DNA of 64,000 bases, from IMG/VR virus record IMGVR_UViG_3300005541_000008, positions 13,361 to 77,360 of that record; one strand, given 5' to 3'. Shown here in pieces: positions 2,603 through 60,250 of this stretch. The position numbers and the translations under genes were made by a program. Below the pieces are notes generated by a model, which worked only from the letters and a program-made list of their open reading frames with translations, searched no databases and was not told the origin of the DNA. How positions within the stretch are numbered: position 1 is the first letter of the stretch; each line of letters opens with the position of its first letter. The stretch is from a virus.

Positions 2603-3724
2603 CTAAAACACCCTACCGGTCACGTAATCGAAATGCCCTATCGTAACCCGTGTGTCAACTCTCGGCTTAACTCCCGTCTCCTCCGCGCACTTTTGCCAGA
2701 ACCACGCGTCCTCTGTATGTACTAAGTACTGTCTTGGTGCGACAAGTTCATGCCCTGTCTTAAACCTCGGCTTCGAAATCTTCTTAAACAACTCCGAGCG
2801 GAAAAGACAGTAATCGAGTCCCGTGCCATCGCACTCGACCAGGTCGCCGTGCTTAAAATCCCTTCCCGGTCTCAGGAGGCCGATATGCCCTGTCTTCCAC
2901 ATTAAGGGTTGCGGGTAGGGCATCTTCATGTGGTAGAGTCCCGCGGCTGTTTCGAGCTTGTGATCGAGAAGGGTGTCGAAGAGCATAGGCATACCCACGG
3001 GAGGCGAAAGCATATCATCGCCGAGGAAGACGAAGTAGGAAGGAAGGGGGTCGAGGGAAAGGAGGTGGTCAATACACCGTTCGCGGGCTTCTGCAACCTC
3101 GAGGCCCTTAACAATCGCCATCTCCCTTATCGACGCGACAGGAAACGCCATTTGGAAAAAGTGGAGGATAAACGCGAGCGACACATAACCCAAAGTCGGG
3201 ACGGCAACTACAATTGTATGCTCCGGGTTTGTAGGAGGCTTCAGCCCTGATAACGGAGGCGGTTCTTCTTCCCCTTCCGCGTCTAAGTCGAGCCAGGAGA
3301 CTTCTTTGAGCGCGGCGGTAAGTTTGCCGTCTTTGAAGGGGAGGTCTTTGAGCATCCCGGGACGGACGATAAGCGCCTTGTGATCGGGACTCACAACACC
3401 CACGACATCATCGGGCTCCTTCATCCACCTCTCCCAAATCCCGAAGGCAATATGCTTCGGTGCCTCGAGAAGAAACACTGCGTCCGGCGCTTTCGGCAAC
3501 ACCCGCGTGTATTGGATCGCATTATTCACGGAGCCCCCAAAGTCTGGGTGAGTAACCCCCCAAATCCCGCGCTCTACATTCGGCGGGAAGCCTATACTCA
3601 ACACCTCACCCGCCCATTCAATCGGTAGGAGTTTCGCGGTTGCAATAAGGGCGAGCATGAGCGAAGGACGTTTGTAAGTGCCCTGTGCGACGATCTTGAA
3701 CGCGTCCCGTGTTAGGGTTGCCAC
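2603..3724 (-). CDS. Glycosyltransferase (GT-A/GT2-like C-terminal domain)
   Basis: IVVAVPT, VAEARE, FVFLGDD (DxD-like), GTGLDYCLF, TEDAWF, VDTRVTIGH. Confidence 0.75.
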   Translation of the reverse strand: MATLTRDAFKIVAQGTYKRPSLMLALIATAKLLPIEWAGEVLSIGFPPNVERGIWGVTHPDFGGSVNNAIQYTRVLPKAPDAVFLLEAPKHIAFGIWERWMKEPDDVVGVVSPDHKALIVRPGMLKDLPFKDGKLTAALKEVSWLDLDAEGEEEPPPLSGLKPPTNPEHTIVVAVPTLGYVSLAFILHFFQMAFPVASIREMAIVKGLEVAEARERCIDHLLSLDPLPSYFVFLGDDMLSPPVGMPMLFDTLLDHKLETAAGLYHMKMPYPQPLMWKTGHIGLLRPGRDFKHGDLVECDGTGLDYCLFRSELFKKISKPRFKTGHELVAPRQYLVHTEDAWFWQKCAEETGVKPRVDTRVTIGHFDYVTGRVF

Positions 3725-4071
3725 TATTGAATCCTCGCCGTTTCGTGCTTAAGATATTGATTCACATACCCCATGTACGCTTTGTACAAATCCCCTGACT
3801 CTACCCATCCATAAGCGATAACCTTATCCTTACGCACAAAGAGGGGGTCGACATAGAGGATACTGAAGAGAGGGCTCCCGACGGGCAAAAACGTCACCTG
3901 CTCTGCCCGCGCTCCTCGTACAGCTCCCGTTTGGGGCACCAAATCCGTGATCATGGTGTTTGTGGCCGCGTCGCGCAACTCAAAACACTCTGGGTCAGAC
4001 GACGGGTCAGCTTCCTTCCCCACGATGAGCTCGTTTTGCCCTATCATAAGCACTATTACCCTTCCCTCCAT
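3724..4071 (-). CDS. Hypothetical protein
   Basis: Coupled ORF in the - strand operon. Confidence 0.6.
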   Translation of the reverse strand: MEGRVIVLMIGQNELIVGKEADPSSDPECFELRDAATNTMITDLVPQTGAVRGARAEQVTFLPVGSPLFSILYVDPLFVRKDKVIAYGWVESGDLYKAYMGYVNQYLKHETARIQ

Positions 4072-4090
4072 GCCGATCCCCTCTCGTGGC

Positions 4091-4354
4091 TTACTGGATG
4101 ATTGAGTGGAAGAACTGTGTCACGAGCGTCCAGGTCTCCGTGTTGCTGCCCCTGTTAAACAGGGTGACGGAGTTCGAGTCCCATTGCGCCGTTAAATACG
4201 CGGCGGGGACGTTTGTCGCGATCGTTGCGGCGGAATATGTTGCAATCCCCCAAACGATATGCGGCAGACGCCCTAGGCCGTGCGCGAAGGTTGTCGAACC
4301 GGAAGACGCTAACGACACAGTCCTCGTGTCGATAAAGGTTCCCAGTAACGTCAC
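4091..4354 (-). CDS. Small beta-rich protein, possibly virion fibre/decoration domain
   Basis: AGGAGG RBS before GTG; TTFAHGLGRLP motif resembles fibre tip domains. Confidence 0.5.
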   Translation of the reverse strand: MTLLGTFIDTRTVSLASSGSTTFAHGLGRLPHIVWGIATYSAATIATNVPAAYLTAQWDSNSVTLFNRGSNTETWTLVTQFFHSIIQ

Positions 4355-4405
4355 GGGTCCTACCTCCTATACGGTATCGGAGGCGCACACATCCCGGCGC
4401 ACAAT

Positions 4406-6133
4406 TCACGGCACCCTCTCGAGTAGTTGGCCATCATCCGCGCAGTGCGGATTCTCGGCAAGTTCTCCCTCGGAGCGAAACGTCCAATCCGTTCCACACT
4501 GAGAGCAACGAGCCATGATGAGGTTTTGCTGCTGCTCAGCTGCCCAACCCAAAAACCCCTTAAAATAGGCTTTCGCGGTAGCAGTCCCGAAGAAGTTCCC
4601 GCCCCACCGTTGCACAGTTCCCAGCACATCGTCCGGCGGAATTTGCCCGGCGAGAATTTGCTCGAACTGTTCAGGGGTCGTTATTCTCGCGAGAAGTTCT
4701 TCGAGTTGTGGATAAAAAGCCCGGTCGTTCGCTTCTGCTGCGTTGCGTATTGCCTGAAACACGGGTAGCATTGCTTCTTCCTTTACTACCTCTGCTTGCA
4801 TAACGGGTTCAGCCCCCGGTTCGGTGACTGGAATGTGCTCAACAACCGGCGCCGGAGGAGGCGGCGGAGGTGGTGCGGTTGCTTCGGGCCCGAGCGGTTC
4901 TTGCGCTTCAACCGGAGACGTCTCGGAGAGAGGAGACGGTGATGGAGACGTCTCGGCGGGTAGTGGAGGTGGTGTGAAGGAAGGAGGGAAGCCTTCCATC
5001 GGTGCTCGAGGAGGCGGCTGGACTGTCGCTCGAGGAGGTTGCTGCGCCTGAGGTGGCGGAACCGCAGCTCCCGACTTGTACGCAACAATCGCCGAAACCA
5101 TCCTCGCAGTATCCCCCCAAATTTTCCCCGCTTGCGGAGCGAGTGCCCTTATAAGTTCTATCGCAGGAGAGACCGGCTCCCCTCCTCCGCCTCCGCCTCC
5201 ACTCTCGTGTATTAAGGGAGCGAGGGTCGTGATGAGGGTAATCATGCGATCCGTGTTATCGGGCTGCGGTGCGCTCGGAGGAGGTGTGAAGAGCTCCTTG
5301 AGGCGAATCGCCATCTCGATAGGGTCGACAGCAGGTGTTGTGTCCCGCGGCGCTGGAGGCGCCATCGTTTTGAGGAGGCCCCCAACCCTCTCGAGGACGG
5401 CAAGAGGATCGGGGGCTGCGGGCGGTGGTGCTGGTGCTGGGGTTAACTCTTTAATCGCTTTTGCGAGCTCGACGATTGAGGGTTGCGGGGCTTGCGCAAC
5501 GGGGGTTGTGGTGGGTGCCGCAGAATCTCGTCCCGTCTTATAAATCTCGGCAACCGCTTTGAAAACCGGTGTTATGTCGGGCGTCGGAGGTGTTGCGGGC
5601 GCAGGAGGAGGTTGCATGGACTTCACAATCTCAACGGCCTTAAGAAGGAGAGCAGTCGGATCGCTTTGCGGCGCGTTACCGTTCTGGGGGTGTGTGGCGG
5701 TGACCGCAGGAGGCGGCGGCACACTGAGCGTTATGCGCTGCGCCGCAATAATTCCCGGCGTGTTTTGCTTGATGAGCTTTGCTTCGTAGATGCCGTCTGT
5801 CCACCCCCGTGCGATCGCTGCCTTGAGAACCTCGCTCTCGATATCCTTAAGCAGCTCGGGTTGTTCGAAGTCGAGGAGGAAGACGGGGTTGTTGCCGTAC
5901 TCCTTAGGCACCGGGAAGCGCTTGTAGAGCTTTATGTAATAGCCCTCGCCCGCCGGAATGTGCGAAAAGAGATTCGCAACAGTTTCGCCCTCTGGAGGTG
6001 CTGACGGAACGAGGATTTCGTCAGGTGGACGCTCGGGCAGCGAGCCGTCGGATTTGTCGCGGTCCGCATCCCTCACCCGATCACGTCCCATCGAGACGAT
6101 TGCGTCGTCTACCGTAGCGCGCGGCTTGGCCAT
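4406..6133 (-). CDS. Large Pro/Ala-rich protein with repeated short amphipathic helices and C-terminal CxxC...C motif
   Basis: 575 aa ORF; helices such as LLLKAVEIVKSM, SIVELAKAIKEL, PIEMAIRLKEL separated by poly-Pro linkers; first gene of the leftward operon. Confidence 0.8.
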   Translation of the reverse strand: MAKPRATVDDAIVSMGRDRVRDADRDKSDGSLPERPPDEILVPSAPPEGETVANLFSHIPAGEGYYIKLYKRFPVPKEYGNNPVFLLDFEQPELLKDIESEVLKAAIARGWTDGIYEAKLIKQNTPGIIAAQRITLSVPPPPAVTATHPQNGNAPQSDPTALLLKAVEIVKSMQPPPAPATPPTPDITPVFKAVAEIYKTGRDSAAPTTTPVAQAPQPSIVELAKAIKELTPAPAPPPAAPDPLAVLERVGGLLKTMAPPAPRDTTPAVDPIEMAIRLKELFTPPPSAPQPDNTDRMITLITTLAPLIHESGGGGGGGEPVSPAIELIRALAPQAGKIWGDTARMVSAIVAYKSGAAVPPPQAQQPPRATVQPPPRAPMEGFPPSFTPPPLPAETSPSPSPLSETSPVEAQEPLGPEATAPPPPPPPAPVVEHIPVTEPGAEPVMQAEVVKEEAMLPVFQAIRNAAEANDRAFYPQLEELLARITTPEQFEQILAGQIPPDDVLGTVQRWGGNFFGTATAKAYFKGFLGWAAEQQQNLIMARCSQCGTDWTFRSEGELAENPHCADDGQLLERVP

Positions 6134-6513: not shown

Positions 6514-6598
6514 TTGACCTCTTATATATCATAATATACATAGTATCTTATGTATTTTATAATAATTTGTATGTATAATAATATATAAGAGAGCAAAA
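6514..6598. other. Very AT-rich tract bounded by an inverted repeat; candidate origin or regulatory element
   Basis: CTCTTATATAT (6519-6529) and ATATATAAGAG (6581-6591) flank an AT-rich core, between divergent genes. Confidence 0.5.
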
Positions 6599-32227: not shown

Positions 32228-32668
32228 GTGTCGTCTCCAAAGATTGAGGTTGTACGTAAGTTCGGTTTTGATGCTGCGCACAGGCTAATCAACCACGAAG
32301 GCAAGTGTGCGTGGCTTCACGGCCACCGCTACACTGTCCACGTGCATTTAGCGCCGAAGCTAGGGCTCGACCCTGTTGGTCGGGTGCTTGACTTCGCCGT
32401 GATGCAACGTTGGATAGGAGGGTGGCTCGATGAGCACCTTGACCACAATACTATCCTCCACGAGGAGGACGGCACGCTTGCAGCGGGTATTGCAAAGTTC
32501 TGCAGGGGTGGTTCGCCGTTCCTCCTTCCTTATAATCCCACAGCAGAGAATATAGCTAAATTCCTTCTCGATACGATCGCCGGGCACCTACTCAAAGGTG
32601 TTCCGGTTGTTGTGACGCGTGTCGTTGTTGAAGAAACCCCTAATTGTAGAGCGGAGGTCGAGATATGA
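32228..32668 (+). CDS. queD: 6-carboxy-tetrahydropterin synthase
   Basis: FDAAHRL, CAWLHGH, LDH, PTAENIA, EETP. Confidence 0.93.
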   Translation: MSSPKIEVVRKFGFDAAHRLINHEGKCAWLHGHRYTVHVHLAPKLGLDPVGRVLDFAVMQRWIGGWLDEHLDHNTILHEEDGTLAAGIAKFCRGGSPFLLPYNPTAENIAKFLLDTIAGHLLKGVPVVVTRVVVEETPNCRAEVEI

Positions 32669-33523
32669 AGTTTTTCGCGGACCAGAGGATTATTATAAAC
32701 CTCGAGAAGCTTTTCTACGCGGAGAAGAAGGATGTACCGTCGGGGAAGAAGATGGATTACTTTCTTATCCTCTACTTCGGTGACGAGACGGACACGGAGG
32801 TGGCGTATGGAACGGCGAGGGCGAGAGATGAGGCGTATGAGAGAATTGTAAGGGCCGTGGAGGGGGCGGAGCATGGAGATCCTGGACGAGAGGGAGATCG
32901 AACTGGCGAAGGAGGAGATACAGAAGAAGGGGCTACTGGGAATAGAGGAGGAGACAGCCAAGAAGTGGGCAGCGAGAGCAGCGGCGGCTTACGTGATGTC
33001 AGTTGACGCTGACGAAGGAGATGCGCAACAGTGGTGGGACGACGGCGAGGTGTACAGAAATGAAGCGCTGGAGCACGCTTCGCAAGTCTCGGGAGAACTC
33101 GTAGATACGATCGCGGACGCTCTGGAGGAGTATAGGGAGCCGGCTGCACGCGAGACGGGAAGGGGGTTTTACTATAACGGCTAAGGCACGGCAACGTAAG
33201 GAGGACGGCAATGAACATTAGACAGAGACTACTAGACTCGGGGAATTTTAAGTGTGCGTGCGGGTGTGGGGAGGTGTTAAAGGACGCGGAGTGTGTGATA
33301 CCGGCAACGGCGTACGTGCTTAAAGACCACTTTTGGAACCTCGTACCGAGGCCGGCGATGACACAGGCTGAGGAGGAGGTAGAAGCCGAGCGTACGGGGG
33401 TACATCCGAATCCTGAGGCGGAGAGAGAAAGGCAGGGCTTTGAGTTGTCGAGAGCGGTGTCGCGGCGGGTGAAGCTCTCGAGGGAGGAGAGGGAAGAGTT
33501 TAAGAGGTGGAAGGGGGAGAAGG

Positions 33524-34183
33524 ATGAAGGTGGTGAGCCTGCTTAGCGGGGGTTTGGATTCGACGGTGATGCTTTACGCCCTGCGCGCTGCAAGACATAA
33601 GGTGAAGTGCGTGTCGTTTGATTACGGGCAGAGACATAGAGTTGAGTTGGAGAGCGCGCAGAGTATCGCGATTAATGCGGGGGTCGAGTATAGGAGGGTT
33701 GACCTCACAACGATTACGGATCTCCTAAAGGGCTCTTCGCAAACGGATGAGGCGGTAGACGTGCCCGAGGGGCATTACGCGGCTGAGAGCATGAAGCTGA
33801 CGGTGGTGCCGAATCGTAATATGATTATGCTCTCGATTGCCGCAGCTTGGGCAATTAGCACGGGCTATGATGCGGTGGCGTACGCCGCGCATGCCGGGGA
33901 CCATGCTATCTATCCGGATTGTAGGAGGGAGTATGTGAAGGAATTGTCAGGGGCTTTCCTCCTCTGCGACTGGCAGCCAATCGCGCTTTACACCCCCTTT
34001 ATCGACCTCACAAAGGCGGAGATTGTGCAGCTCGGCGTTAAGCTCGACGCGCCGTTTCACCTTACCTTCAGCTGCTATAAGGGGAAGGCGGGTGTGCATT
34101 GTGGCCGCTGCGGAACGTGTACGGAGCGGAAGGAGGCTTTTACACTAGCGGGGGTTACGGACCCTACAACCTACGAGGCGTGA
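33524..34183 (+). CDS. queC: 7-cyano-7-deazaguanine synthase
   Basis: LSGGLDS, FDYGQRH, VPNRN, YPDC, SCY...HCGRCGTC. Confidence 0.96.
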   Translation: MKVVSLLSGGLDSTVMLYALRAARHKVKCVSFDYGQRHRVELESAQSIAINAGVEYRRVDLTTITDLLKGSSQTDEAVDVPEGHYAAESMKLTVVPNRNMIMLSIAAAWAISTGYDAVAYAAHAGDHAIYPDCRREYVKELSGAFLLCDWQPIALYTPFIDLTKAEIVQLGVKLDAPFHLTFSCYKGKAGVHCGRCGTCTERKEAFTLAGVTDPTTYEA

Positions 34184-40093: not shown

Positions 40094-40669
40094 ATGAAGG
40101 GGATTATTGATAAGGAGCAGGCTAAGAAAGCAGTCTCGTCACTACTCGAGTTTTTTCACGTTCCGGATTCGGACGGGATTTACACGGAAACGCCCGAGCG
40201 GTTTTTGAACGCGCTTTATGAGATTGTAGGGGGGCAGGGAGTTGCAGCGCCGTCGCTTAGGACCTTCGAGACCAAGAGCTCGTCGGACATTGTGTTCTTC
40301 GGGCCTCTGAAAAGCACGAGTTTATGTCCACACCACCTCTTCCCGTATCTCGTGGAGGCGTTCTTTGCGTACACGCCGGGTGAGAGGGTGGTAGGGATTA
40401 GCAAACCCGGGCGTCTCCTGCAATGGGTGTGTAGTAGAACGGGACTCCAAGAGGAGATGGGCGGAGCGTTTCTCGATGAGTTCGAGAAGCAAGTGCCGAA
40501 TAAGGGCGCGATGCTCCTCCTTAAGGGGTGGCATTTGTGTGCTTCGATCCGCGGCGCAAAGCAAAGTGAGGCCGAGACGATTACAATCGACACACGAGGA
40601 GTTTTCCACACGCAGCACGCCCAGGATAGGTTTATTAGCCTCGTGAAGCTTGCAAGAGGGGCTGCGTGA
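40094..40669 (+). CDS. folE: GTP cyclohydrolase I
   Basis: ETPER, SLCPHHLFP, GISK, LQE, HLCASIRG. Confidence 0.92.
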   Translation: MKGIIDKEQAKKAVSSLLEFFHVPDSDGIYTETPERFLNALYEIVGGQGVAAPSLRTFETKSSSDIVFFGPLKSTSLCPHHLFPYLVEAFFAYTPGERVVGISKPGRLLQWVCSRTGLQEEMGGAFLDEFEKQVPNKGAMLLLKGWHLCASIRGAKQSEAETITIDTRGVFHTQHAQDRFISLVKLARGAA

Positions 40670-41703
40670 GGCATCCAGCCGCGTATCCGTCATCGAAGTG
40701 CGAGAAGTGTCCGTTACTTGAGCGCGTCGACAAGTACCACGTGAGCGCCGAGAAGCCGGACACTGCGCGCATTGCTCTCGTGGGCGAGGCGCCCGGGGAG
40801 AAGGAGGTGACGTTGCGCAGGCCGTTTGTCGGGCGCTCGGGAATCCTTATGGACCAGCTCATTGCTGCTGCGGGGATTCGGCGCTCGGAGTGTGTCGTGA
40901 CGAATGTGCTTAAGTGTCAGCCGCAGGGGAATAAGCTCCCAAACGATTACCAACTCGACATCGCAATCGGTTGTTGTTCTGAGATCCTCGCCGAGGATAC
41001 CTCGGGCGTCGAGGTGATAGTGGGTTTTGGGGCGACGCCTCTCCGCGCGTTTATGCGACTCGACCGGATTACGCAACGCCGGGGCTCTGTGTACAGACTC
41101 CCCTCAGGGCAGCTTTATGTTGCGACCCTCCACCCGGCATTTCTCCTCCGCGGCACGTTCGTACAAGCGAAGCAAGACGAGACGAAGGTGCTCCCGCCTC
41201 AGGTCGTGATAAATGACTTGCGTAAGGCGCGGAGGATATTGGATGGGAGTTTTGAGGAGGTCGTCGAGAACTTTGTGCTGTATCCCACCGCTGATGATAT
41301 GATGGCGTTCCTAGAGCGCCTCGAAGAACCTGACGTCCTCGTCGGCGTGGATATTGAAACGACGTATGTTGACACGTGGAGAAGTGCACAACTCCGTACG
41401 ATAGCGTTCGCGTTTCCCGATCTCGCGATTGCGGTTGCTGCGGATACCGATGAGAATTTGATGTTTATTATCGAGGCGCTCGAGAGTCCCGCGAGGAAGG
41501 TGTTTCACAACGGGATTTTCGATGTGAGCGTCCTCGAGGAGACGGGCTTTGAGGTCGTGAATTGGTTCGCCGACGACCAATACATGCACCACCTCGGGTA
41601 TGCAGAGCTCCCGCATTCGTTAGCCTTTGTGCAGAGTATTTATAATAATATGCCCTACCATAAGGACATGAGGGATGAGATCGCCGAGGAGTATGAAAAA
41701 TGA
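40666..41703 (+). CDS. Uracil-DNA glycosylase-like domain fused to the N-terminal part of a 3'-5' exonuclease
   Basis: VGEAPG, PFVGRSG, TNVLKC, TLHPA (family 4 UDG); VDIET (ExoI) and FHNGIFD (ExoII). Confidence 0.88.
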   Translation: MRHPAAYPSSKCEKCPLLERVDKYHVSAEKPDTARIALVGEAPGEKEVTLRRPFVGRSGILMDQLIAAAGIRRSECVVTNVLKCQPQGNKLPNDYQLDIAIGCCSEILAEDTSGVEVIVGFGATPLRAFMRLDRITQRRGSVYRLPSGQLYVATLHPAFLLRGTFVQAKQDETKVLPPQVVINDLRKARRILDGSFEEVVENFVLYPTADDMMAFLERLEEPDVLVGVDIETTYVDTWRSAQLRTIAFAFPDLAIAVAADTDENLMFIIEALESPARKVFHNGIFDVSVLEETGFEVVNWFADDQYMHHLGYAELPHSLAFVQSIYNNMPYHKDMRDEIAEEYEK

Positions 41704-43013
41704 GCGACGACCTAACCCTACTCACGTATAACTGTCGGGATGCGTTGTCGACGGTGCTCTCCGCCGAGCCTTTATTAAGGGAGCTCGAGACCGACGGCCT
41801 GAGCGAGTTCTACTTCCGGATTGTGCAGCCCATGGCACAGATCATCGTCAAGATGAACCGGAAGGGCATCTTCGTCGACACTGCGAAGCGCAACGCGGCC
41901 GTAACAACCGTCGAAGCAGAGATCGAAGAACTCGAGCATAAATTCGCGGATCTCGTCGGACGGCCGATGAACGTGAATGGTGCGGAGTTTGGGGATTTCC
42001 TCTTCGGAGAATTAGGGCTGCGCGGCTCGCGTCGCGGGGACTCCGGACGCTGGCAGGCGGATGAGGAGACGCTGAAACGGGTGTTGCGCGAGTACCCAGA
42101 CGTCGCGCCCGCAATAAACATGGGGCTCGATATTAGGGCGAAGAAGAAGATCATCTCCACGTTTCTCCTCCACGCAATCCCCGAGGAGGATAGCCGGGTT
42201 CACCCCTCCTTCAAGATCGGTCCCACGACCGGGCGCTTAGCCTGTCGGCGCCCTAACTTCCAAAACCATCCCGCAGGGGTGTGTAGGAGCGTGTATTGTG
42301 CGCCGCCGGGGTTTGTACTCGTGGGGGCGGACTACTCTCAGCTCGAGATCCGGATCCTCGCAGTCCTCGCTAACGACGCGCCTCTCCTCGAGGCTTTCGC
42401 AAACGGGTGGGATATCCACAACACCAATGCCTGGGTGTTGTTTGGTCTCGAGCAGGGCTCGCCGGTCACAAAACTCCAACGGGTCATCGCGAAGATGTTC
42501 CTCTACGGCCTTATGTACGGGGCGGATGACGACACCCTCCATACGAACCTGTGTCGTGATATCCCCGAAGGTGTGCCGATGAGTGTTGTGAAGACAATGA
42601 CCTCGAGGTTCTTTGCTGCGCACCCTGCAATCCGCGCCTTCCGAACAGTACTCGAGAACAATGTCCGGACGAAGCGGAGACTCGTAAACGCGTTTGGAAG
42701 GCGGCGCCTCTTTTTCGGGGAGATACAGAGCGCGATTCGTCAGGGCTATAACTTCCCGATGCAGGGTGGGGGCGCGGATCTCATTAGCGACCGGATGATC
42801 AAGCTCGATCGAGAGATTAGGATCCCGCCGGTTCTCCAGGTGCACGACTTTGTCGCGTATGAGGTTGAGGAGTCCCGAGGGCAAGAGCACGCGGTGGTCT
42901 TGAAGCAAGTGCTCGAGGAGAAGTGCCCCGAGCTTAGTGGGTACTCATTCCCCGTGGAGACTAAAGTGGTGCAGAATTGGGCGCAGTTCGATCCGGAGTA
43001 TGCGGATTTGTAG
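41700..43013 (+). CDS. polA: Family A DNA polymerase catalytic part
   Basis: YNCRD (ExoIII), TGRL...PNFQN, DYSQLEIR (motif A), R...K...YG..YG (motif B), QVHD (motif C). Confidence 0.93.
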   Translation: MSDDLTLLTYNCRDALSTVLSAEPLLRELETDGLSEFYFRIVQPMAQIIVKMNRKGIFVDTAKRNAAVTTVEAEIEELEHKFADLVGRPMNVNGAEFGDFLFGELGLRGSRRGDSGRWQADEETLKRVLREYPDVAPAINMGLDIRAKKKIISTFLLHAIPEEDSRVHPSFKIGPTTGRLACRRPNFQNHPAGVCRSVYCAPPGFVLVGADYSQLEIRILAVLANDAPLLEAFANGWDIHNTNAWVLFGLEQGSPVTKLQRVIAKMFLYGLMYGADDDTLHTNLCRDIPEGVPMSVVKTMTSRFFAAHPAIRAFRTVLENNVRTKRRLVNAFGRRRLFFGEIQSAIRQGYNFPMQGGGADLISDRMIKLDREIRIPPVLQVHDFVAYEVEESRGQEHAVVLKQVLEEKCPELSGYSFPVETKVVQNWAQFDPEYADL

Positions 43014-43539: not shown

Positions 43540-44310
43540 ATGAAAATACGGATAGCTCACGAGACCCCAACACAGTACATTGAGTACACGCAACGCATCA
43601 CAGACTATGATTTTGCGATCGCATCGATGGTGCTTAAGAATAAATTCTACGCAGGGATGTTTGCCCGACGCGCCGCAGGGCGCCTTCTCATTCTCGATAA
43701 CGGCTTCTTCGAAGATGGCGCGCCGCAGTCCTCCGACGAGCTGTTAGCTGCTGCAGATCTCGTACGCGCGGATTATGTTGTCGCTCCCGACGTGCTCGGG
43801 GATAAGAAGAAAACCCTCGAGCTGTATGAACCGTTCATGGAGAAATTCGCAAGCCCTAAATACCGTCTCGCCGCGGTTGTAGTGGGGAGCGACGCCAAGG
43901 AGCTCGTGGAGTGTTATGAGTATTATGCTAAGGACCCGCGCGTCGACATGTACTGCTGGGCGTTTGGGTCGGATAGGAGAGAAGCGCTTCGAATACTCCG
44001 ACACAGCGCGAGGAGCGCGGGCGTGGACACCTCCCGACGTCACCACCTCTTCGGCTTCCGTACTCTCGAAGAGCTCGCAGCGTGCGTCTCATACCTCGAA
44101 GAGGTGGACGAGGTCACCATCGACACCTCGAAACCCGCATCCGCAGCTTTCGCGGGAAAGCAGCTCGAAGACCTAGGGCGAAAGGCTTACGCACGGCCCG
44201 ATTGGAACCAGGCACTCGACCCAGGACTGCTCTCCTTTAACATAGGGGTTTTCCGTGGGTGGATGCAGAGTGTAGCGCGTGCGCCGGAAGCATTTACGAG
44301 GGGTGCGTGA
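43540..44310 (+). CDS. TGT-fold protein, probable DpdA-like DNA guanine transglycosylase
   Basis: ILDNGFFE, APDVLGD, HHLFG, IDTSKP in the order of the TGT/DpdA barrel motifs; genome encodes the preQ0 pathway. Confidence 0.65.
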   Translation: MKIRIAHETPTQYIEYTQRITDYDFAIASMVLKNKFYAGMFARRAAGRLLILDNGFFEDGAPQSSDELLAAADLVRADYVVAPDVLGDKKKTLELYEPFMEKFASPKYRLAAVVVGSDAKELVECYEYYAKDPRVDMYCWAFGSDRREALRILRHSARSAGVDTSRRHHLFGFRTLEELAACVSYLEEVDEVTIDTSKPASAAFAGKQLEDLGRKAYARPDWNQALDPGLLSFNIGVFRGWMQSVARAPEAFTRGA

Positions 44311-45455
44311 GCTGGTTGGAGCAGTACGTTGCCTACGCAGGCAATACGGAAGCACCGAAACAATTTCACTGGTGGGCGGGGGCTACAATTCTCGGAGCAG
44401 CGCTACGACGCAACGTTTCCTTCCAACAGGAGTATTTTGCGACCTACCCTACGCTCTGGACACTTGTCGTAGCCCCCTCCGGGACTAAGAAAACGTCTGC
44501 TGCGACTATTGCTCACAACATCGTCTCGAAGATTGAGGGCGTTCGGATCTTAGCAGACCGCATCACCCCCGAGGCGCTTGCGGACGCGCTAGGCGAGGCT
44601 GATGAATCAGGGCACATCGAATCGCAAGGCCTGATCTACGCACCAGAGCTCGTGGGGTTCTTAGACAAGCGCTCATATAACGAGGCGATGGTAAACTTCA
44701 TGCTCCGTCTTGCTGACTTCCCAGAGAAGTGGGTGACTCAAACCCGAGGAGGAGGGCGCGTTGAGCTTCGCAACGTCGCAGTGAGCTTTCTCGGGGCGAC
44801 TGCAAACGACCTCCTCTACGAGGCAGTACCCGCCCTCGCCCTTAAATCGGGTTTCCTGGCCCGGTTTATCTGCGTGTACTCCGCCGGGAGCAATATGGCC
44901 GTGCCCTTCATGTGGAAGGACCGAGTGCTCGAGAAGGAAGTGCTCAACAGCCTCTACGACCTTTCCCTCCTCCGAGGGGAAATGGTAATGGGGAGACCGG
45001 CGCGGGATTGGTATATATCATTCTACTACGACCACAAAGCGATGATGGGAAAAGAGGCCTCGTCGAAGCTACGCGCCTACTACGAAAGGAAACCCGACCA
45101 CCTCCTCCGCCTTGCAATGATCACGTCTATCGCCCGCTCACGTCGGTGTGAGTTTAGCGTCCGCGCATTCGAAGAAGCCCTAGCACGTCTCGAGGAGGCC
45201 GAGAAGGGGCTTCCCTACCTCTACGACGAGATTGAAGCGAGCGACATGGGACGGTATCAAATCCGGGTGTTAGAGCAACTCGATCGTGCCGGGGGACACC
45301 TCTCCCACACAGACCTCGTGAGGCGGAACGCGGCGGTTGTTGGGGACGCGGCTGTGATTAAGAGGGTCGTGCAGACGCTTATTGAGAGCGGCCTTATGGT
45401 GATGGAGAGGTCGGCAACCGGGGCGATTGCGTATCGCAGGAGGAAGGTGTCGTAA
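44307..45455 (+). CDS. DUF3987-like P-loop protein (replicative helicase-like) with C-terminal wHTH
   Basis: EAPKQFHWW, LVVAPSGTKKTS, TPEAL, TRGGG, GFLARF. Confidence 0.8.
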   Translation: MSWLEQYVAYAGNTEAPKQFHWWAGATILGAALRRNVSFQQEYFATYPTLWTLVVAPSGTKKTSAATIAHNIVSKIEGVRILADRITPEALADALGEADESGHIESQGLIYAPELVGFLDKRSYNEAMVNFMLRLADFPEKWVTQTRGGGRVELRNVAVSFLGATANDLLYEAVPALALKSGFLARFICVYSAGSNMAVPFMWKDRVLEKEVLNSLYDLSLLRGEMVMGRPARDWYISFYYDHKAMMGKEASSKLRAYYERKPDHLLRLAMITSIARSRRCEFSVRAFEEALARLEEAEKGLPYLYDEIEASDMGRYQIRVLEQLDRAGGHLSHTDLVRRNAAVVGDAAVIKRVVQTLIESGLMVMERSATGAIAYRRRKVS

Positions 45456-45456
45456 A

Positions 45457-45711
45457 ATGAGGGGAGAAACGAAAGAAGGTGGAATAACTGCTCGCGAGAT
45501 AATGCAAGCAATCGTAACTTGGAAGCCGCCGATATTTCCCCGCGACCTACACACAAAACTCGGTATACCGACGGAGCAGTGTGGTCGCAGGATGCAGGTG
45601 CTTCATCATTGGGGATGCGTAAAATACGCGGAGCCGGGGAAGCGTGGGTGGCGCGGCTATGAGGTCACGGAGTGGGGAAGGAGATATGCAAGAGGAAAAG
45701 AGGAAGTGTAG
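45457..45711 (+). CDS. Small winged-helix-like protein
   Basis: PRDLHTKLGI...RMQVLHHWGCV...YEVTEWG. Confidence 0.6.
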   Translation: MRGETKEGGITAREIMQAIVTWKPPIFPRDLHTKLGIPTEQCGRRMQVLHHWGCVKYAEPGKRGWRGYEVTEWGRRYARGKEEV

Positions 45712-47476
45712 TAAGTGTGGACTCGAAAAGGGCGCCGGAGATTTCTACGTCGGGCCCGGTAATTGGTGTAAAGAGTGCAGAAGAAGCTATGTGCGAGGAC
45801 GCCGGTCTACTCGTAGAGAGCGCGGTAAGCAGCGTCTCTATCCTGAGCAGTGGCCTATTCTTTTACAGCACGTAACAAATAAGGAAGCGCTCCTCCTTTT
45901 TGACTTACTGCAGAGTTGCGGATTACGCCCCACAGAAGCGCTCGCTCTCAGAGCCGAGAGTTTTGATTTTTCTCGAGGTACCGTAACGGTAAAGAATACA
46001 GATCGCGGGGAAGAGAGAACCCTAATCATGCTCGTGCGTGCGGATTTGCTAATCGCTTTGGAGGAAAGGAAGGGGTCCATCGATATAAAGCCCCAGATAG
46101 CCCGTAAGGTTTTTAGAGAGGCAGTAGCTGCCGGAAAGTCTGCTCTCGAGAAAGTCACAGAGGAGTATCCTAACGAGGAAAAGCCGGACACGGATGGTCT
46201 GAGTATGGCGTCGCTCCGCTACACCTTCGGCCTGCGCCTCTACAGCATCGGTGCACGAGAGCCCGAGTTTTCCGCTCTCCTTCGGCTCAGATCACGCGAG
46301 CCAGTGTGGCCTAACTTCGAGCTTATGAACGAACTCCTAAAGAAAAGCTGGGAACAGCAACCAAGACTCTGGACTCCGCGTGAGACTTTGGTGGTTTATA
46401 ATAAGGACGGACTCAAGAAGTGCACACGATGCAGCCAGGAGAAACCTCCGGAACAGTTCACTCCCGGAGTGAGTAGGTGTCTACAATGCGTTAATGAAGT
46501 AGTCCAACCTTATATGGAGAAGCGTAAGAAGGGAGAAGACGGTAAACGCAACAAACGCAAGAAAGCGTGGTATGTGTATCCAGATCGCGCGAAGTGGTCA
46601 CCTAGAGAGAGAATACTCTATCCTGAGCAGTGGCCGAGATTCTGGCGGGCTGTGAAGGAGTATAAGTTCCGGATGATCTTCGATCTTATGCAGAGCTGCG
46701 GACTCCGTGCTAGAGAAGCCCTCTATATCGGACCGAAGGACTTTGACTTCGACCGCGGAGTACTTGCCGTGCGCACGCTAAAACAAGTAGAACGACCAGT
46801 GCACGACGTGTTTGTGCGTCCTGACATACTAAGGAGGCTAAGGAGTATAAAAGTAGACACGGAAGGAAGATACTTCGACTTCGAGTACCCAACCCTATGG
46901 GACGAGTTTAAAAGGGTCGCCAAAGAAGTAGGCCTCGATCCGAAACTCGGAACACACGCGCTACGTCATTGTTGTGCGGTAAGACTAGGGCGGCTTCCTT
47001 CTGCAAACGAGATGCAAGCTAGAGCTCTCCTTCGACACAGTCCAATCAACGTAACACAAGGCTACGCGCAGCCTATAGAAGACCCGCTAAAGCATCAGGA
47101 GATTTGGGATCAGTCTTGGACCGAGCAAGAGTGGATCTGGATAGCTCTCTTAACAGGGGCTCCTGATTGGGATCAGAGTGAACTAGGATGGATAGAAGAA
47201 GATCGCAAACGCGCGACTCGTGACGGATGGATAGATCCCGAGAGGTGGCAGGCCCTCGTAGACTCGTTGGGGAATAAATGTCTCTGTTGCTGGAAGCAGC
47301 CTCCTGATACGACGCTCTACGCAGATCATATAGTTCCGCCGAGCGCCGGAGGGTTGTGGATCGAGTCCAATCTTCAGCCTCTTTGCCGCACCTGCAATAG
47401 CTCGAAGGGTGCAAGGAAGGTAAACTTTCGCAAAAACCCCCAAGCGGATAGGTCATGGTGCGCTCATCCCCGCTAA
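45686..47476 (+). CDS. Tandem Zn-finger/tyrosine-recombinase domains fused to an HNH nuclease
   Basis: Two repeats of CxxC..CxxC + LYPEQWP + QSCGLR; second repeat has R, K, HALR, H and Y; C-terminal DHIVP..GG...NLQPLCRTCNSSKG. Confidence 0.85.
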   Translation: MQEEKRKCSKCGLEKGAGDFYVGPGNWCKECRRSYVRGRRSTRRERGKQRLYPEQWPILLQHVTNKEALLLFDLLQSCGLRPTEALALRAESFDFSRGTVTVKNTDRGEERTLIMLVRADLLIALEERKGSIDIKPQIARKVFREAVAAGKSALEKVTEEYPNEEKPDTDGLSMASLRYTFGLRLYSIGAREPEFSALLRLRSREPVWPNFELMNELLKKSWEQQPRLWTPRETLVVYNKDGLKKCTRCSQEKPPEQFTPGVSRCLQCVNEVVQPYMEKRKKGEDGKRNKRKKAWYVYPDRAKWSPRERILYPEQWPRFWRAVKEYKFRMIFDLMQSCGLRAREALYIGPKDFDFDRGVLAVRTLKQVERPVHDVFVRPDILRRLRSIKVDTEGRYFDFEYPTLWDEFKRVAKEVGLDPKLGTHALRHCCAVRLGRLPSANEMQARALLRHSPINVTQGYAQPIEDPLKHQEIWDQSWTEQEWIWIALLTGAPDWDQSELGWIEEDRKRATRDGWIDPERWQALVDSLGNKCLCCWKQPPDTTLYADHIVPPSAGGLWIESNLQPLCRTCNSSKGARKVNFRKNPQADRSWCAHPR

Positions 47477-48743: not shown

Positions 48744-49229
48744 ATGCATCACGGCCAACCTTTCTTCTTTCTCTCTACAAGCAGCGTTCGAACCTCGATG
48801 CCCCCTTTAATGAGCTTTGCCACAGCTACCTTTTCGGTACATTGGGGCGAGGAGAAAGGTTTCCTCGACTCAAAGAACAGGCCCTGTCAGTATAGGATGA
48901 TAAGACTCAACTCAATAGTGTTTGACGGCGATTGCATCGTACACGCGCTCTACGTTGACGATCGAGTCGAAGCGACTTGTCCAGTGGATAGGGGTCCTTT
49001 CCTTTACCTAGGGTTCGACGTCGCGCAACACCAAGTGCTTAGAGTGTGTTGTTCCGCCGTTTACACTTTTGCGATCGATCCCGAGAGAGGGTGGAGCGCT
49101 AAGGATCTTCTTGTGTGCTCAGGATGCGGCGTGGTGCAAGAGAAAAGGTGGGATGAGGAGCACACGTTGTGTAAAGAGTGTTTTGTAGAGATGCTCGGGA
49201 TAAAGACCTATCACGGAGTTGTGAGATGA
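48744..49229 (+). CDS. Hypothetical Cys-rich protein, paralog of 49226-49834
   Basis: GFLDSKNRPCQYR...LRVCCSA...CSGCGVVQ...HTLC. Confidence 0.7.
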   Translation: MHHGQPFFFLSTSSVRTSMPPLMSFATATFSVHWGEEKGFLDSKNRPCQYRMIRLNSIVFDGDCIVHALYVDDRVEATCPVDRGPFLYLGFDVAQHQVLRVCCSAVYTFAIDPERGWSAKDLLVCSGCGVVQEKRWDEEHTLCKECFVEMLGIKTYHGVVR

Positions 49230-49834
49230 AACGCCATAGTCAAAAATTCCTCGTAAAGGCGCGACGACGCAGAGTGACGAAGCACCGCAACCCCGCTTTC
49301 GAGTTTATGCAAAACGCCCTCGTAGCGATAGTGCGCGGAATCCCTAGTAAAATCGAGGACCTCTGGCAACCCTTATACGAGCGTGTCTATTCCCGGTGCG
49401 AAGAGCTAGGGTTTCTCGACACTAAGAACCGGCCGTGTCGTTATAGGAGGATAAGGATCTTACGGGTTGAGTTTGATGGCCCTTGTAGACTGCACGTGCT
49501 TTATAGGGGCAATGTGCGCTTGCTAACCGGTTCCCGCGGCCCCTACGTAAACTCGTACTGCGCGCCGGAGGTAGAGATTAAACGACACGAGGAGTTGAGA
49601 GTGTGCTGTTCTGCAGCGTACGTCTTCGAGATTATTGATCGCCGACACAAACCCCGTGGTCGTGCTTACCCTGTAGGACGGCGTACGTGTTCGGGGTGTG
49701 GTGTGGTGCAGAAGTATAAGCACCCAGAACACACTCTGTGTTTGGGGTGTTTTAGGGAGATGATCGGGGTTCCAACCTATCTCGTGGGGATGAAAGAGTG
49801 GCGTCCCGGGTTTAAAGGAGGTGGGAGTGACTGA
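49226..49834 (+). CDS. Hypothetical Cys-rich protein, paralog of 48744-49229
   Basis: GFLDTKNRPCRYR...LRVCCSA...CSGCGVVQ...HTLC. Confidence 0.7.
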   Translation: MKRHSQKFLVKARRRRVTKHRNPAFEFMQNALVAIVRGIPSKIEDLWQPLYERVYSRCEELGFLDTKNRPCRYRRIRILRVEFDGPCRLHVLYRGNVRLLTGSRGPYVNSYCAPEVEIKRHEELRVCCSAAYVFEIIDRRHKPRGRAYPVGRRTCSGCGVVQKYKHPEHTLCLGCFREMIGVPTYLVGMKEWRPGFKGGGSD

Positions 49835-50429
49835 CTGGCCTTGGCAACCTGAGAGGAAGGACCCTCTAGAGGAGCGTGCGTGGCGGCGCAACCCTAACCC
49901 TGAAGTAATCCACCAACCCGTCTACACACGCATCACGATCCCCGCACACACACCGGGCTTTGCGAATTACGCATTCGGCTACGCAAGGGGACAGCACATC
50001 CCAGAGCTCGGTCGGGTATCGACTCTCCACGACACTAACCTCGACCAAGCGAATGTGATGCCGTCGAGAAAGTTCGAGTTTCAGACCTTAGTAATTGTAA
50101 TCACGGCCGCAACACTCAGCGACTACCTCGACGTGTACAATAACCTCTTCGGCGAGTTTAGGGTGGTAGATAAGAACATGCTCTATTTCGTGATGCAACA
50201 TCTTTGCCCTATGTATGTTGCAAACCTCCGCCCTGCGAGTACTTTGCCGAGGAATGTAAAGGATCTTCATCTCAACCCGCGCTACCGACGGTTCTCGCAC
50301 AAGCTCCAAACCCCGATCCTTATCAACCCCTACGAGTTCTTCCAGCTCCGAGTTGACTGCGACGTGGACTTGGCGTATGCTGTTGGGTTGTATATTGCGC
50401 TCGATGGCTTGATGTGGAGACCTGTGTAA
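49821..50429 (+). CDS. Beta-rich protein, possibly jelly-roll capsid-like; homolog of the ORF at 1-518
   Basis: QPVYTRI, DTNL, VDKNM, KLQTPILINPYEFFQLRV. Confidence 0.55.
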   Translation: MGVTDWPWQPERKDPLEERAWRRNPNPEVIHQPVYTRITIPAHTPGFANYAFGYARGQHIPELGRVSTLHDTNLDQANVMPSRKFEFQTLVIVITAATLSDYLDVYNNLFGEFRVVDKNMLYFVMQHLCPMYVANLRPASTLPRNVKDLHLNPRYRRFSHKLQTPILINPYEFFQLRVDCDVDLAYAVGLYIALDGLMWRPV

Positions 50430-57923: not shown

Positions 57924-58904
57924 CTACGCTGCCTTTGCAACCGCAGGCGCAGGTGCAGCGGCCGGCGCCCTTCTCCTCCCTTGCGAGAGACCGAATAGCG
58001 CAATCAATCCAACACCCCCGATAATTAGCCACATCATAGTATTACCACCCCCGCCCCCGAACATCGAAGCGGTGACTTGTTTCCCTCCTGGCCCCATCTC
58101 CTGCAACACCTGATTCGGAACGGGCTGCTGGCCTCCCATTACCGCATTAGCGGCTGCAGTGGCGGCGGTCTGCGCCATTCCGCTACCCACAAAGAAATTC
58201 TTAACATGGCCGAAGAAAGTGCCTACATTACTCCCTAGGGCTTTAACCCCAGAAGGACCGAGGTAGTACGCGCCGCCTACCGCGGCAACCGCTCCGGCAA
58301 CCGGAAGGAGTGTGTGCACGAGCCAATTGCCCGTAATTTTGCGCGGGAGTTTGAGAGAGAAGCCAAGATCGCCGAACCCTGACATATACGCAGCGCGTTC
58401 AATTGGCCCCGGCACACCAAACGGAGCGAGCTTTGTGGTGTAGTCCTGGAAGTAAGGAGTGAAGCCCTCCATCCTATACCCAACATCTCTGAGAGCAGTC
58501 CCCCAATAAAGCCCTCCTCCGGGTTTTACGCCGATTACGGGTTTCAGTCTCTGTAGGAGCGCGGACTCCGCCCTAAGCTTCTCTATCGGGGCTAGGGCTG
58601 TTAAGGCCTGATTCGCCGCCCGGACCTCGTTCGTCAAAACCCGTTTCTCCAGCGACGTCTTCGCCCTCGCTAACCCCGCCTTTGCCCTAGCGAGTCTCTG
58701 TTGGTATTGTAGAGAAGGTTGCGTCTTCGTAGCAACGCCCGCCGTCGCCGGCCTTCCCGTTGCAAAGCTCGGCATTCCCCAGGGTCTTGGCGCCCTTCCC
58801 CTACCCGCTCGCAATATCGCTCCCGGCTGCCGATTCCCAACCCCCCACTTAAAGAGGGGGTGTGCAGCATAAATCTCCGTCGCTTGCTTCTTCTCTCCAA
58901 ACAT
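57924..58904 (-). CDS. Gly/Ala-rich membrane-associated putative virion protein
   Basis: GGAGG RBS, ATG at 58904 (MFGEKK); GFGDLGF; C-terminal TM plus RRR. Confidence 0.7.
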   Translation of the reverse strand: MFGEKKQATEIYAAHPLFKWGVGNRQPGAILRAGRGRAPRPWGMPSFATGRPATAGVATKTQPSLQYQQRLARAKAGLARAKTSLEKRVLTNEVRAANQALTALAPIEKLRAESALLQRLKPVIGVKPGGGLYWGTALRDVGYRMEGFTPYFQDYTTKLAPFGVPGPIERAAYMSGFGDLGFSLKLPRKITGNWLVHTLLPVAGAVAAVGGAYYLGPSGVKALGSNVGTFFGHVKNFFVGSGMAQTAATAAANAVMGGQQPVPNQVLQEMGPGGKQVTASMFGGGGGNTMMWLIIGGVGLIALFGLSQGRRRAPAAAPAPAVAKAA

Positions 58905-58906
58905 GC

Positions 58907-60250
58907 CTACCTCCTCCGCTTCGCGGGCCTTCTCGTTGCGGGACTCTTCGCCGCTCCGCCAGTAGCCCCCTTTGCAAAATAGTAATACCCGATTCCCGCA
59001 GCAGCGAGCGCTAACACAATCCAAGTCGCCGGACTCATGGCGCCGGCCTTAGCAACACCGTACATACGCGCAACCAGCGAATCGGCCCTGGCTTTGAGCG
59101 CCGCAACGATCTCCGCGGATGTCTGGCCAAAACCCGACACCCCACCTCCCCCACCCGTCTCGGCCTGCAACGCACCAACTTCTTGCTGCGTCAACCCCCC
59201 ATTAGCCAATATAGCCCCTATTTGCTGGGGTGTCATTCCCGCCGCCTGCATCAACGCGGTTTGTTGGTCGGCGGATAGGGTAGTTCCTCCCTCGGGACCT
59301 TGGGCAGCTTGCAGAGCAGCCTGCTCCTCGGGCGTCATTCCTCCAGAGACCTGCGCCTGCTCCTCGGGCGTGAGTGCTGCGCCCTGATCGACCGATCCTC
59401 CTCCACCCCCACCACCTCCTCCACCATACATCGACGCTTCCTGAGGTACAGGCGGAGGCGGTACAGCTGCCGGTGCGCCTTCAGGGGTTGGCGTGGGAGG
59501 AATCGGAGCAACGGGAGCCGGTGCTAAGGAAATCGTCTGCGGAGGGATAAGTGCCCCCGTGCTTGGATCGTACTGCCCTCCCGGACCTGTGATCGCGTGC
59601 GTGGTTGGATCTTCAGTGTAGCCCGGAGGTAGAGGTTGGCCCTGATAGAGAGGCTGCCCTGGTGCCCAAACCTGCGTGCCCGGTGCGGGAGGTGGCCCTG
59701 GTGCTGCCTTCTTCCCAATCCCGCTCACCACCTTCTTAATAGCACCACCCGCAGTGATTATAGGAGCCGCAAAAGCCTCCGCACCAAGGACGAGCGGAGC
59801 CGTTATGGTCTGCAACGGGTGCAGGAAGGGCTTTGTCAGGACGTTCGAGATCGTGCTGCTCATCTGCTTCTGCAGGTGCTTGTTAATTAAACTAATCCCC
59901 CCAGTCATAATAACCGGAGCCACCTTCGACACAATTCTCACGACGGGTTTTGTGACCTTACTCACGAGGTGGCTAATTCCCTTCGTGATGTGCTTAAACC
60001 AGCCATCAAAATCGCCTAAGCCCCCTGCCCCCTTCTCGTGAACGACGGGTCGCCACCCCTCTGCAGCCCTCTGTCGGAGATCTGTAGCGTGTACTACTGT
60101 AAAGTAGTCAACGTACCTCCCCTGAGCGTCCTTCCCTCCGGGTTTATGCATCAGCACCACGCCCATCTCGGGGTGGGCTACGAGCTCGGTGCCCTTCGGC
60201 GCCTTTACCACAGTACCGAGTCCATCGATCATACCCGTGTCAGAATACAT
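58907..60250 (-). CDS. Gly/Pro/Ala-rich membrane-associated putative virion/DNA-delivery protein
   Basis: GLGDFDGWFK amphipathic segment, TPEEQA repeats, C-terminal TM plus basic tail. Confidence 0.75.
   Translation of the reverse strand: MYSDTGMIDGLGTVVKAPKGTELVAHPEMGVVLMHKPGGKDAQGRYVDYFTVVHATDLRQRAAEGWRPVVHEKGAGGLGDFDGWFKHITKGISHLVSKVTKPVVRIVSKVAPVIMTGGISLINKHLQKQMSSTISNVLTKPFLHPLQTITAPLVLGAEAFAAPIITAGGAIKKVVSGIGKKAAPGPPPAPGTQVWAPGQPLYQGQPLPPGYTEDPTTHAITGPGGQYDPSTGALIPPQTISLAPAPVAPIPPTPTPEGAPAAVPPPPVPQEASMYGGGGGGGGGGSVDQGAALTPEEQAQVSGGMTPEEQAALQAAQGPEGGTTLSADQQTALMQAAGMTPQQIGAILANGGLTQQEVGALQAETGGGGGVSGFGQTSAEIVAALKARADSLVARMYGVAKAGAMSPATWIVLALAAAGIGYYYFAKGATGGAAKSPATRRPAKRRR

Follow-up and report, generated by a model that had tools for sequence, protein, structure and literature searches.

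The 64,000-nucleotide window analysed here covers bases 13361-77360 of a linear 77,360-bp IMG/VR virus record (IMGVR_UViG_3300005541_000008) that is about 70% complete by CheckV, and it carries on the + strand, at 45686-47476, a gene in which two tyrosine recombinase (YR) modules are joined to an HNH nuclease domain. Our analysis showed that this tandem gene is a real phage gene built from three parts, two diverged copies of a zinc (Zn)-ribbon-YR module and an HNH domain. We regard it as almost certain that the layout of its product is Zn ribbon, degenerate YR catalytic domain, Zn ribbon, intact YR catalytic domain and HNH. The gene is the sole match to PF00589 and the sole match to PF01844 in the whole 77-kb record. 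Its parts are listed below, with confidence in the AlphaFold2 (AF2) models given as the predicted local distance difference test (pLDDT).

45686-47476, + strand: whole gene, 596 aa (P0001) from ATG 45686, from the open reading frame (ORF) list and translation
45698-45787, + strand: Zn ribbon 1, with C8, C11, C28 and C31; Cys columns invariant or nearly so in the family; AF2 pLDDT 93-98
45833-46372, + strand: YR catalytic domain copy 1, degenerate, from the family alignment, BLASTP and AF2
46412-46498, + strand: Zn ribbon 2, with C246, C249, C265 and C268, followed by a basic linker to residue ~305; AF2 pLDDT 90-94
46598-47146, + strand: YR catalytic domain copy 2, intact, with W..Q..W tail; PF00589 best stretch 311-462; AF2 pLDDT >90
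47198-47440, + strand: HNH nuclease domain, with CxxC 532-535, D547-H548, N562 and CxxC-N 567-571, from Pfam and the relatives' alignment

The frame is open without break from 45644 to 47476 on the + strand (0 stops in 610 codons) and offers three possible starts, GTG 45644, ATG 45659 (605 aa) and ATG 45686 (596 aa). Of the two ATGs, 45686 is preferred by the family alignment and 45659 is the one taken in the public gene call; the start is not fixed. An identical full-length protein of 605 aa (P0270) is recorded by JGI/IMG, Logan and ENA, on two contigs, and a 412-aa copy truncated at a contig end (P0002) breaks off partway through copy 2. The original prediction, made from the letters of the DNA, had named an assembly artefact as one outcome that would overturn it; the presence of the same protein in three sources and on two contigs, with copies that have diverged and differ in their codons, shows that the fusion is not such an artefact. 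In-frame TTG GTG codons lie at 46388-46393, at the junction of copy 1 and ribbon 2 and nine codons ahead of the first Cys of that ribbon, approximately where the single-module relatives described below begin. They may represent a relic start codon, or an internal start for a ribbon-YR-HNH product.

The internal duplication is evident at the level of both profiles and pairwise alignment, as had been proposed. The Pfam family Phage_integrase (PF00589) covers two separate segments (3.3e-19; 69.8 bits, cut-off 27.1), and in BLASTP residues 6-200 of the N-terminal part (1-235) pair with 244-450 of the remainder (236-596), with 29% identity (E 8e-19). The same codon is used at 30 of the 61 identical aligned residues of the two copies. 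Codon choice has thus been randomised between them, which indicates from the sequence that the duplication of the YR module is old and excludes an assembly repeat. The otherwise diverged copies contain a perfect 20-nt direct repeat (45836-45855 and 46616-46635, 780 nt apart) that encodes LYPEQWP. We rejected this repeat as the mark of a recent conversion or as a functional site, since about half of the identical residues share codons anyway and a six-codon run is unremarkable. Recombination between its two occurrences would remove one module in frame, and the repeat does not clearly exceed what chance would give. A maximum-likelihood tree sets both copies inside one 16-row clade (support 96/89), with copy 2 as sister to the single-module protein P0003 (94/86) and copy 1 on a branch of 2.66, compared to a median of 1.05. 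The long branch of copy 1 would be consistent with relaxed constraint. The tree appears compatible both with a duplication within the lineage and with a fusion of two paralogues, and does not separate them.

Copy 2 retains R341, K366, H424-x-x-R427-H428, H451 and Y460, all in invariant or near-invariant columns of the family alignment, in agreement with the R-K-HxxR-H-Y signature first read from the sequence. Copy 1, by contrast, retains only R81 and R178 among the catalytic residues; the Lys, both His and the Tyr are gone, with T105-D106 in place of L-K, A175 in place of the first His, Y179 in place of H428, L201 in place of the last His and an alignment gap at the position of the nucleophile Tyr. 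It has a 16-aa insertion ahead of the HxxR box and keeps the W..Q..W tail, and PF00589 covers it at profile positions 2-81 only. When copy 1 was modelled alone with the family alignment (AF2, pLDDT 87), it showed the catalytic-domain topology and no Tyr-bearing helix, so that its degeneracy, originally noted as an ASLR motif with the second His and the Tyr missing, is seen in alignment and model alike. The nearest structures to both models in Foldseek were XerA, IntI4, XerH, XerD, Brujita Int and lambda Int, with a probability of 1.00 for both copies to XerA, IntI4, XerH and lambda Int; the top match of the copy 1 model was XerA (4a8e), at 7.4e-05. The protein is therefore placed in the YR superfamily by the Pfam cut-off and the catalytic fold, while the R-K-H-R-H/W-Y residues are present in copy 2 and lacking in copy 1. 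The proposed single-chain pseudo-dimer with one Tyr active site would be consistent with these residues. The full-length AF2 model had copy 2 at pLDDT >90, the first half of copy 1 at moderate values and a predicted template modelling score (pTM) of 0.51. A full-length alignment that included the HNH relatives was dropped because MAFFT set those relatives onto copy 2, and the HNH part of the full-length model is hence unreliable.

The usual view is that a tyrosine recombinase requires a core-binding domain and works as a set of two or four subunits, identical or paired, which cut in turn. The absence of a usual core-binding domain, also part of the original prediction, was confirmed: no match to PF02899, PF13495 or PF14659 was found, neither AF2 model contains such a domain, and about 65 residues (ribbon, one helix and basic linker) stand ahead of each catalytic domain.

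The C-terminal HNH domain is as intact in sequence as it had first appeared. Pfam identifies HNH_5 (PF14279; 42.7 bits against a cut-off of 27.5) and HNH (PF01844; 33.2 against 21.4) at residues 532-577, and all 15 of the 15 invariant columns of its relatives are kept, including C532, C535, D547-H548, N562, C567 and C570-N571. The sequence matches of this part among solved structures are HNH domains. Its relatives are proteins of ~200 aa composed of a ribbon (KCxKCG..F...CKxC), basic repeats and HNH. These free-standing Zn-ribbon-HNH endonucleases of phages and bacteria resemble the tandem protein over its C-terminal 90 residues (32-42% identity, with all invariant residues), and their N-terminal ribbon motif is of the same type; they differ in that a basic repeat region joins ribbon to HNH, whereas in the tandem protein two YR modules lie between. 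To judge from these likenesses, the HNH part was taken from a Zn-ribbon-HNH family bearing a ribbon of the same type as the two in the tandem gene. PHROG families labelled endonuclease VII/HNH also match residues 2-48, which contain ribbon 1. Of the PADLOC defence systems, PtuB alone was matched, weakly and at the level of HNH (17.7 bits, E 6e-4), and the protein does not count as a member.

The module from which the gene was built belongs to a family of ~240-aa Zn-ribbon-YR proteins that is rare, unnamed and metagenomic. A HMMER search of 1.84 billion cluster representatives returned ~30 proteins, beyond the self copy, that match residues 244-485 (26-41% identity, up to 167 bits). Most are 180-260 aa long, and the longest, P0008 and P0017 (402 and 361 aa), each have an unrelated C-terminal extension. 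The remaining strong matches cover residues ~500-585, i.e. the HNH part only, and, apart from the gene's own copy, none of the representatives combines two or more of the three parts. The architecture that the original prediction had called unusual is thus not a common annotated family; its matches are single modules or separate HNH proteins. Family members have an N-terminal CxxC..CxxC ribbon, a ~40-residue basic linker, a complete YR catalytic domain and a W..Q..W C-terminus. Each half of the tandem protein carries all four of these elements, so each is a whole copy of the family and not merely a domain, while the whole protein, with two modules and HNH, is not a simple family member. Copy 2 is 36-41% identical to the family (P0003-P0025) and has ribbon, linker, catalytic motifs and W..Q..W tail in common with it, but the members found are all single-module, with none in tandem and none with HNH. 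Each of the ten family clusters looked up has 1-2 members, on metagenome contigs (Logan/ENA/JGI) 2-53 kb long. After the family, the closest proteins score <=87 bits and are Xer-like recombinases of the ordinary type, which possess core-binding domains.

Other searches gave a similar picture of rarity. A word-index homologue search with the whole protein found the truncated self copy only, and IMG/VR scans with the whole protein and with the alignment found no relatives. No family member was found among 50,697 cultured-phage records, searched by tblastn with the intact module, nor by two peptide-pattern scans of 185,579 species genomes, which returned only unrelated generic recombinases. A metagenome scan identified the related virus L002 (Ga0315281_10003317; see below) and 53 further loci with weak matches (23-39% identity), almost all of them confined to the part with the catalytic domain. 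Distant cousins of 183-187 aa, consisting of the catalytic domain only, occur in two low-GC IMG/VR phage contigs (L061 6596-7147 and L062 9998-10561) and are without any N-terminal domain. Each ends an early gene block, and is followed by several hundred non-coding bases and then by convergent SbcCD-like genes. The picture of genomic context given here for the family comes from L002 and these two cousin contigs. We found no natural tandem YR or YR-HNH fusion in the literature, which is weak evidence given incomplete coverage.

Xer-type enzymes and IntI4 are the best sequence and fold matches of both copies (PDB 4a8e, 2a3v, 5jk0, 5dcf), and the R-K-H-R-H-Y active site is common to them and copy 2. 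XerC and XerD pair on a site with two arms, and one member of this heterodimer can be silent. The tandem protein differs from these systems in substituting a Zn ribbon with basic linker for the core-binding domain, in combining both subunits, one permanently dead, in one chain with an attached nuclease, and in being viral, with no dif-like site found. It is not a member of the known Xer equivalogs, since its NCBIfam scores fall well short of the cut-offs for XerA (79.6 against 220 bits, 2.7e-22), XerC (39.5 against 335) and XerD (35.2 against 330), and that for integron integrase is likewise below its cut-off (47.2 against 265 bits). The best PHROG matches are integrase families (phrog_216, 4.7e-23; phrog_1, 2.4e-22). 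The YopR/MrpR regulators of SPbeta, weak fold matches (8bj6, 8a0a), provide a precedent, relevant to copy 1, for a phage YR fold without recombination activity; they are, however, stand-alone repressors with a core-binding domain, whereas copy 1 is fused to a live copy and a nuclease. We also considered type IB topoisomerases and protelomerases. Up to E 1, Pfam yielded no topoisomerase family, and the protelomerase TelA appeared only at rank 36 (E 0.03) in the Foldseek search with the copy 1 model. Membership of either group was rejected, the matches to recombinases being better.

The tandem gene is co-oriented with its neighbours within a block of replication and nucleotide-metabolism genes, where it closes the series of replication genes, in the order UDG and 3'-5' exonuclease, PolA, a 268-aa protein and DUF3987 primase/helicase on its 5' side, with NADAR and MazG genes on its 3' side. 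The upstream features are as follows.

40666-41703: UDG + 3'-5' exonuclease, 345 aa
41700-43013: PolA polymerase domain, 437 aa
43504-44310: conserved 268-aa protein between PolA and DUF3987, with no Pfam family
44259-45455: DUF3987 primase/helicase
45457-45711, + strand: 84-aa ORF overlapping the start of the tandem gene by 26 nt, with a weak match to a transcription-regulator PHROG

The 84-aa ORF has no Pfam family and no counterpart in L002, and it is uncertain whether it belongs with the tandem gene. In L002, UDG-exonuclease, PolA, the 268-aa protein, DUF3987, QueD and MazG are found in the same order, at 39-56% identity, and the slot between the replication genes and MazG is occupied by one 237-aa module (P0005), with no HNH match in the 15 kb of L002 sequence covered. 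A single module in the same slot means that the locus ancestrally carried a single-module gene, and that the tandem copy and HNH are additions seen only in the virus with the tandem gene. DNA polymerase A is split into two overlapping ORFs (40666-43013) in this virus; the split recurs in L002, with an RNase T-like gene separating the two halves.

We tentatively favour, with a confidence just short of even, the view that the product of this three-part gene works as a linked heterodimer with both Tyr460 and HNH cuts, and processes phage DNA rather than acting as an integrase. The protein would be a covalently linked heterodimer, resembling XerC/XerD in one chain, in which each copy, with its own ribbon, would grip one arm of a single two-arm DNA site, and ribbon plus basic linker would provide a second DNA grip in place of the core-binding domain. 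Copy 2, through Tyr460, would alone make and rejoin the covalent 3'-phosphotyrosyl cut; with cutting and rejoining limited to Tyr460, no more than one pair of strands could be exchanged in a synapse of two such proteins. When Xer exchange at cer and psi is one-sided, Holliday junctions result, and a nuclease that resolves junctions, T4 endonuclease VII, shares the fold class of HNH. The HNH domain of the tandem protein might similarly hydrolyse the junction left by one-sided strand exchange, or else the other strand. The original prediction that the protein is able to cut only one strand overlooks this intact domain, which could cut the second, and the suggested role as a regulator is unlikely in view of the six catalytic residues kept in copy 2 and the full set of HNH invariants. 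The likely job would be site-specific processing of phage DNA during replication or recombination, e.g. resolving multimers or junctions, or making a defined break. We prefer such a role to lysogenic integration, which is less likely, because the gene lies inside the replication block, has no arm-binding or core-binding domain and carries a nuclease, and because no family member was found in the 185,579 species genomes or 50,697 phage records, as far as these narrow scans go. The position of the catalytic-domain-only cousins beside SbcCD-like recombination genes lends further support to a role in replication or recombination.

An alternative that we consider unlikely is a selfish homing-type nuclease, in which HNH is the working part and the two YR modules mainly direct it to DNA, having taken the place of ribbon and basic region in an ordinary, free-standing Zn-ribbon-HNH endonuclease. 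Such an origin is suggested by the nearest HNH relatives, which consist of ribbon, basic repeats and HNH in ~200 aa and have the same ribbon motif, by the PHROG endonuclease VII and HNH endonuclease families that match the ribbons, and by the lack of the HNH part in L002, as expected for a sporadic selfish gene. A pure binding module would nonetheless have no need of the six YR catalytic residues kept in copy 2, the YR gene is not sporadic, as L002 has one in the same slot, and no disrupted or intron-like host gene is visible around the tandem gene. Integration is the usual task of a phage YR, and a classical lysogeny integrase or excision enzyme, in which ribbons stand in for the core-binding domain and the dead copy is a DNA-bending or arm-binding subunit, would agree with the PHROG integrase families as best matches, with the small, possibly winged-helix ORF that overlaps the start of the gene as Xis-like genes can, and with the incompleteness of the record. 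We find this rather improbable for a gene in the middle of a replication block with no repressor or att-like features, all the more so as no family member was found in the species genomes or cultured-phage records searched, the upstream ORF lacks a counterpart in L002 and a nuclease domain has no role in conservative integration.

It is also conceivable, if quite improbable, that the dead copy 1 serves as a surrogate core-binding domain that clamps the same half-site from the opposite face, the protein being either a monomeric unit that still di- or tetramerises, or a relaxing or nicking enzyme similar to type IB topoisomerases. Isolated YR catalytic domains, such as that of lambda Int, can relax DNA, and the family has no core-binding domain. 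Some jumbo phages encode a topoisomerase I of the YR superfamily (PMC7824862). Against a surrogate, the single-module relatives do without one, and copy 1 has its own ribbon and tail, suggesting a full second subunit; a topoisomerase is disfavoured by the lack of any Pfam topoisomerase match noted above. That the gene is a chimera, a product of a missed stop or frameshift or a non-functional remnant is extremely improbable. The form does occur in one virus only and one copy is truncated to 412 aa, at a contig end, but the exact full-length protein comes from three sources and two contigs, repeats that are 29% identical with randomised codons are not a collapsed or expanded repeat, and the frame contains 0 stops in 610 codons with the catalytic residues of copy 2 and HNH intact.

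Several points weigh against a linked heterodimer that processes phage DNA. The tandem-HNH form is present in one virus only. The copy 1 model draws on an alignment made up of active relatives, and in the full-length AF2 model the C-terminal half of copy 1 and HNH have pLDDT <50 (the alignment covered copy 2 only). With the record at ~70% completeness, its missing part could contain a lysogeny module or a second recombinase. Prophage copies may have escaped the genome scans, whose peptide patterns were narrow, and a protein-atlas search hints, as a lead only, at similar small Zn-ribbon YR clusters in Chloroflexota. Lastly, neither inverted repeats with 5-9 bp spacers nor repeats beside the gene were found beyond chance, and no target site was found.

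The search for lox- or dif-like sites yielded terminator-like hairpins and one AT-rich palindrome 39 kb off, and nothing ties them to the gene. The palindrome belongs to a very AT-rich nested palindromic stretch at 6520-6595, in a genome of 55% GC, that includes TAATATACATA-GTATCT-TATGTATTTTA, with 11-bp arms and a 6-bp spacer. This stretch is located between the leftward and rightward gene blocks, at the sign change of GC skew, and is a candidate for an origin, a region of divergent promoters or a site of recombination.

A further-reaching possibility, which we regard as doubtful, is that the protein is a natural single-chain heterodimeric YR that brings one phosphotyrosyl and one hydrolytic HNH site to a two-arm target. 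It would then be a new kind of break-and-join enzyme, and its parent ribbon-YR an undescribed class of replication-associated recombinases. It might, for instance, exchange strands on one side and then resolve the junction itself, or make a defined double-strand break that leaves the protein attached to one end. The family itself, having swapped the core-binding domain for a Zn ribbon, is a natural experiment on the requirements of YRs, and one of its members has fixed a pair of one active and one silent subunit in a single chain, plus a nuclease. If active, this member would show evolution fixing half-of-the-sites activity and might offer a compact enzyme that reads two half-sites and cuts asymmetrically. 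Its significance is limited for now, as it comes from one uncultured virus and no target site for it was found.

Elsewhere in the window, no capsid, portal or terminase was recognised in the PHROG search. The largest ORFs of the leftward blocks (575, 373, 447 and 366 aa, at 2603-6133 and 57924-60250) have no PHROG match. Two adjacent paralogous ORFs at 48744-49834 (161 and 218 aa) have the same terminal zinc motif, CSGCGVVQ...HTLC.xC, and no family match; the next ORF (49821-50429) likewise matches no family. Two genes that suggest 7-deazaguanine metabolism are present:

32228-32668: QueD homologue (PTPS)
33524-34183: QueC

These QueD-like and QueC-like genes lie in the early block (window 32228-34183, with L002 9411-9848 as the corresponding region), and L002 also carries a gene with a dATP/dGTP diphosphohydrolase domain. 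From these gene contents, this virus group probably modifies its own DNA with a 7-deazaguanine.

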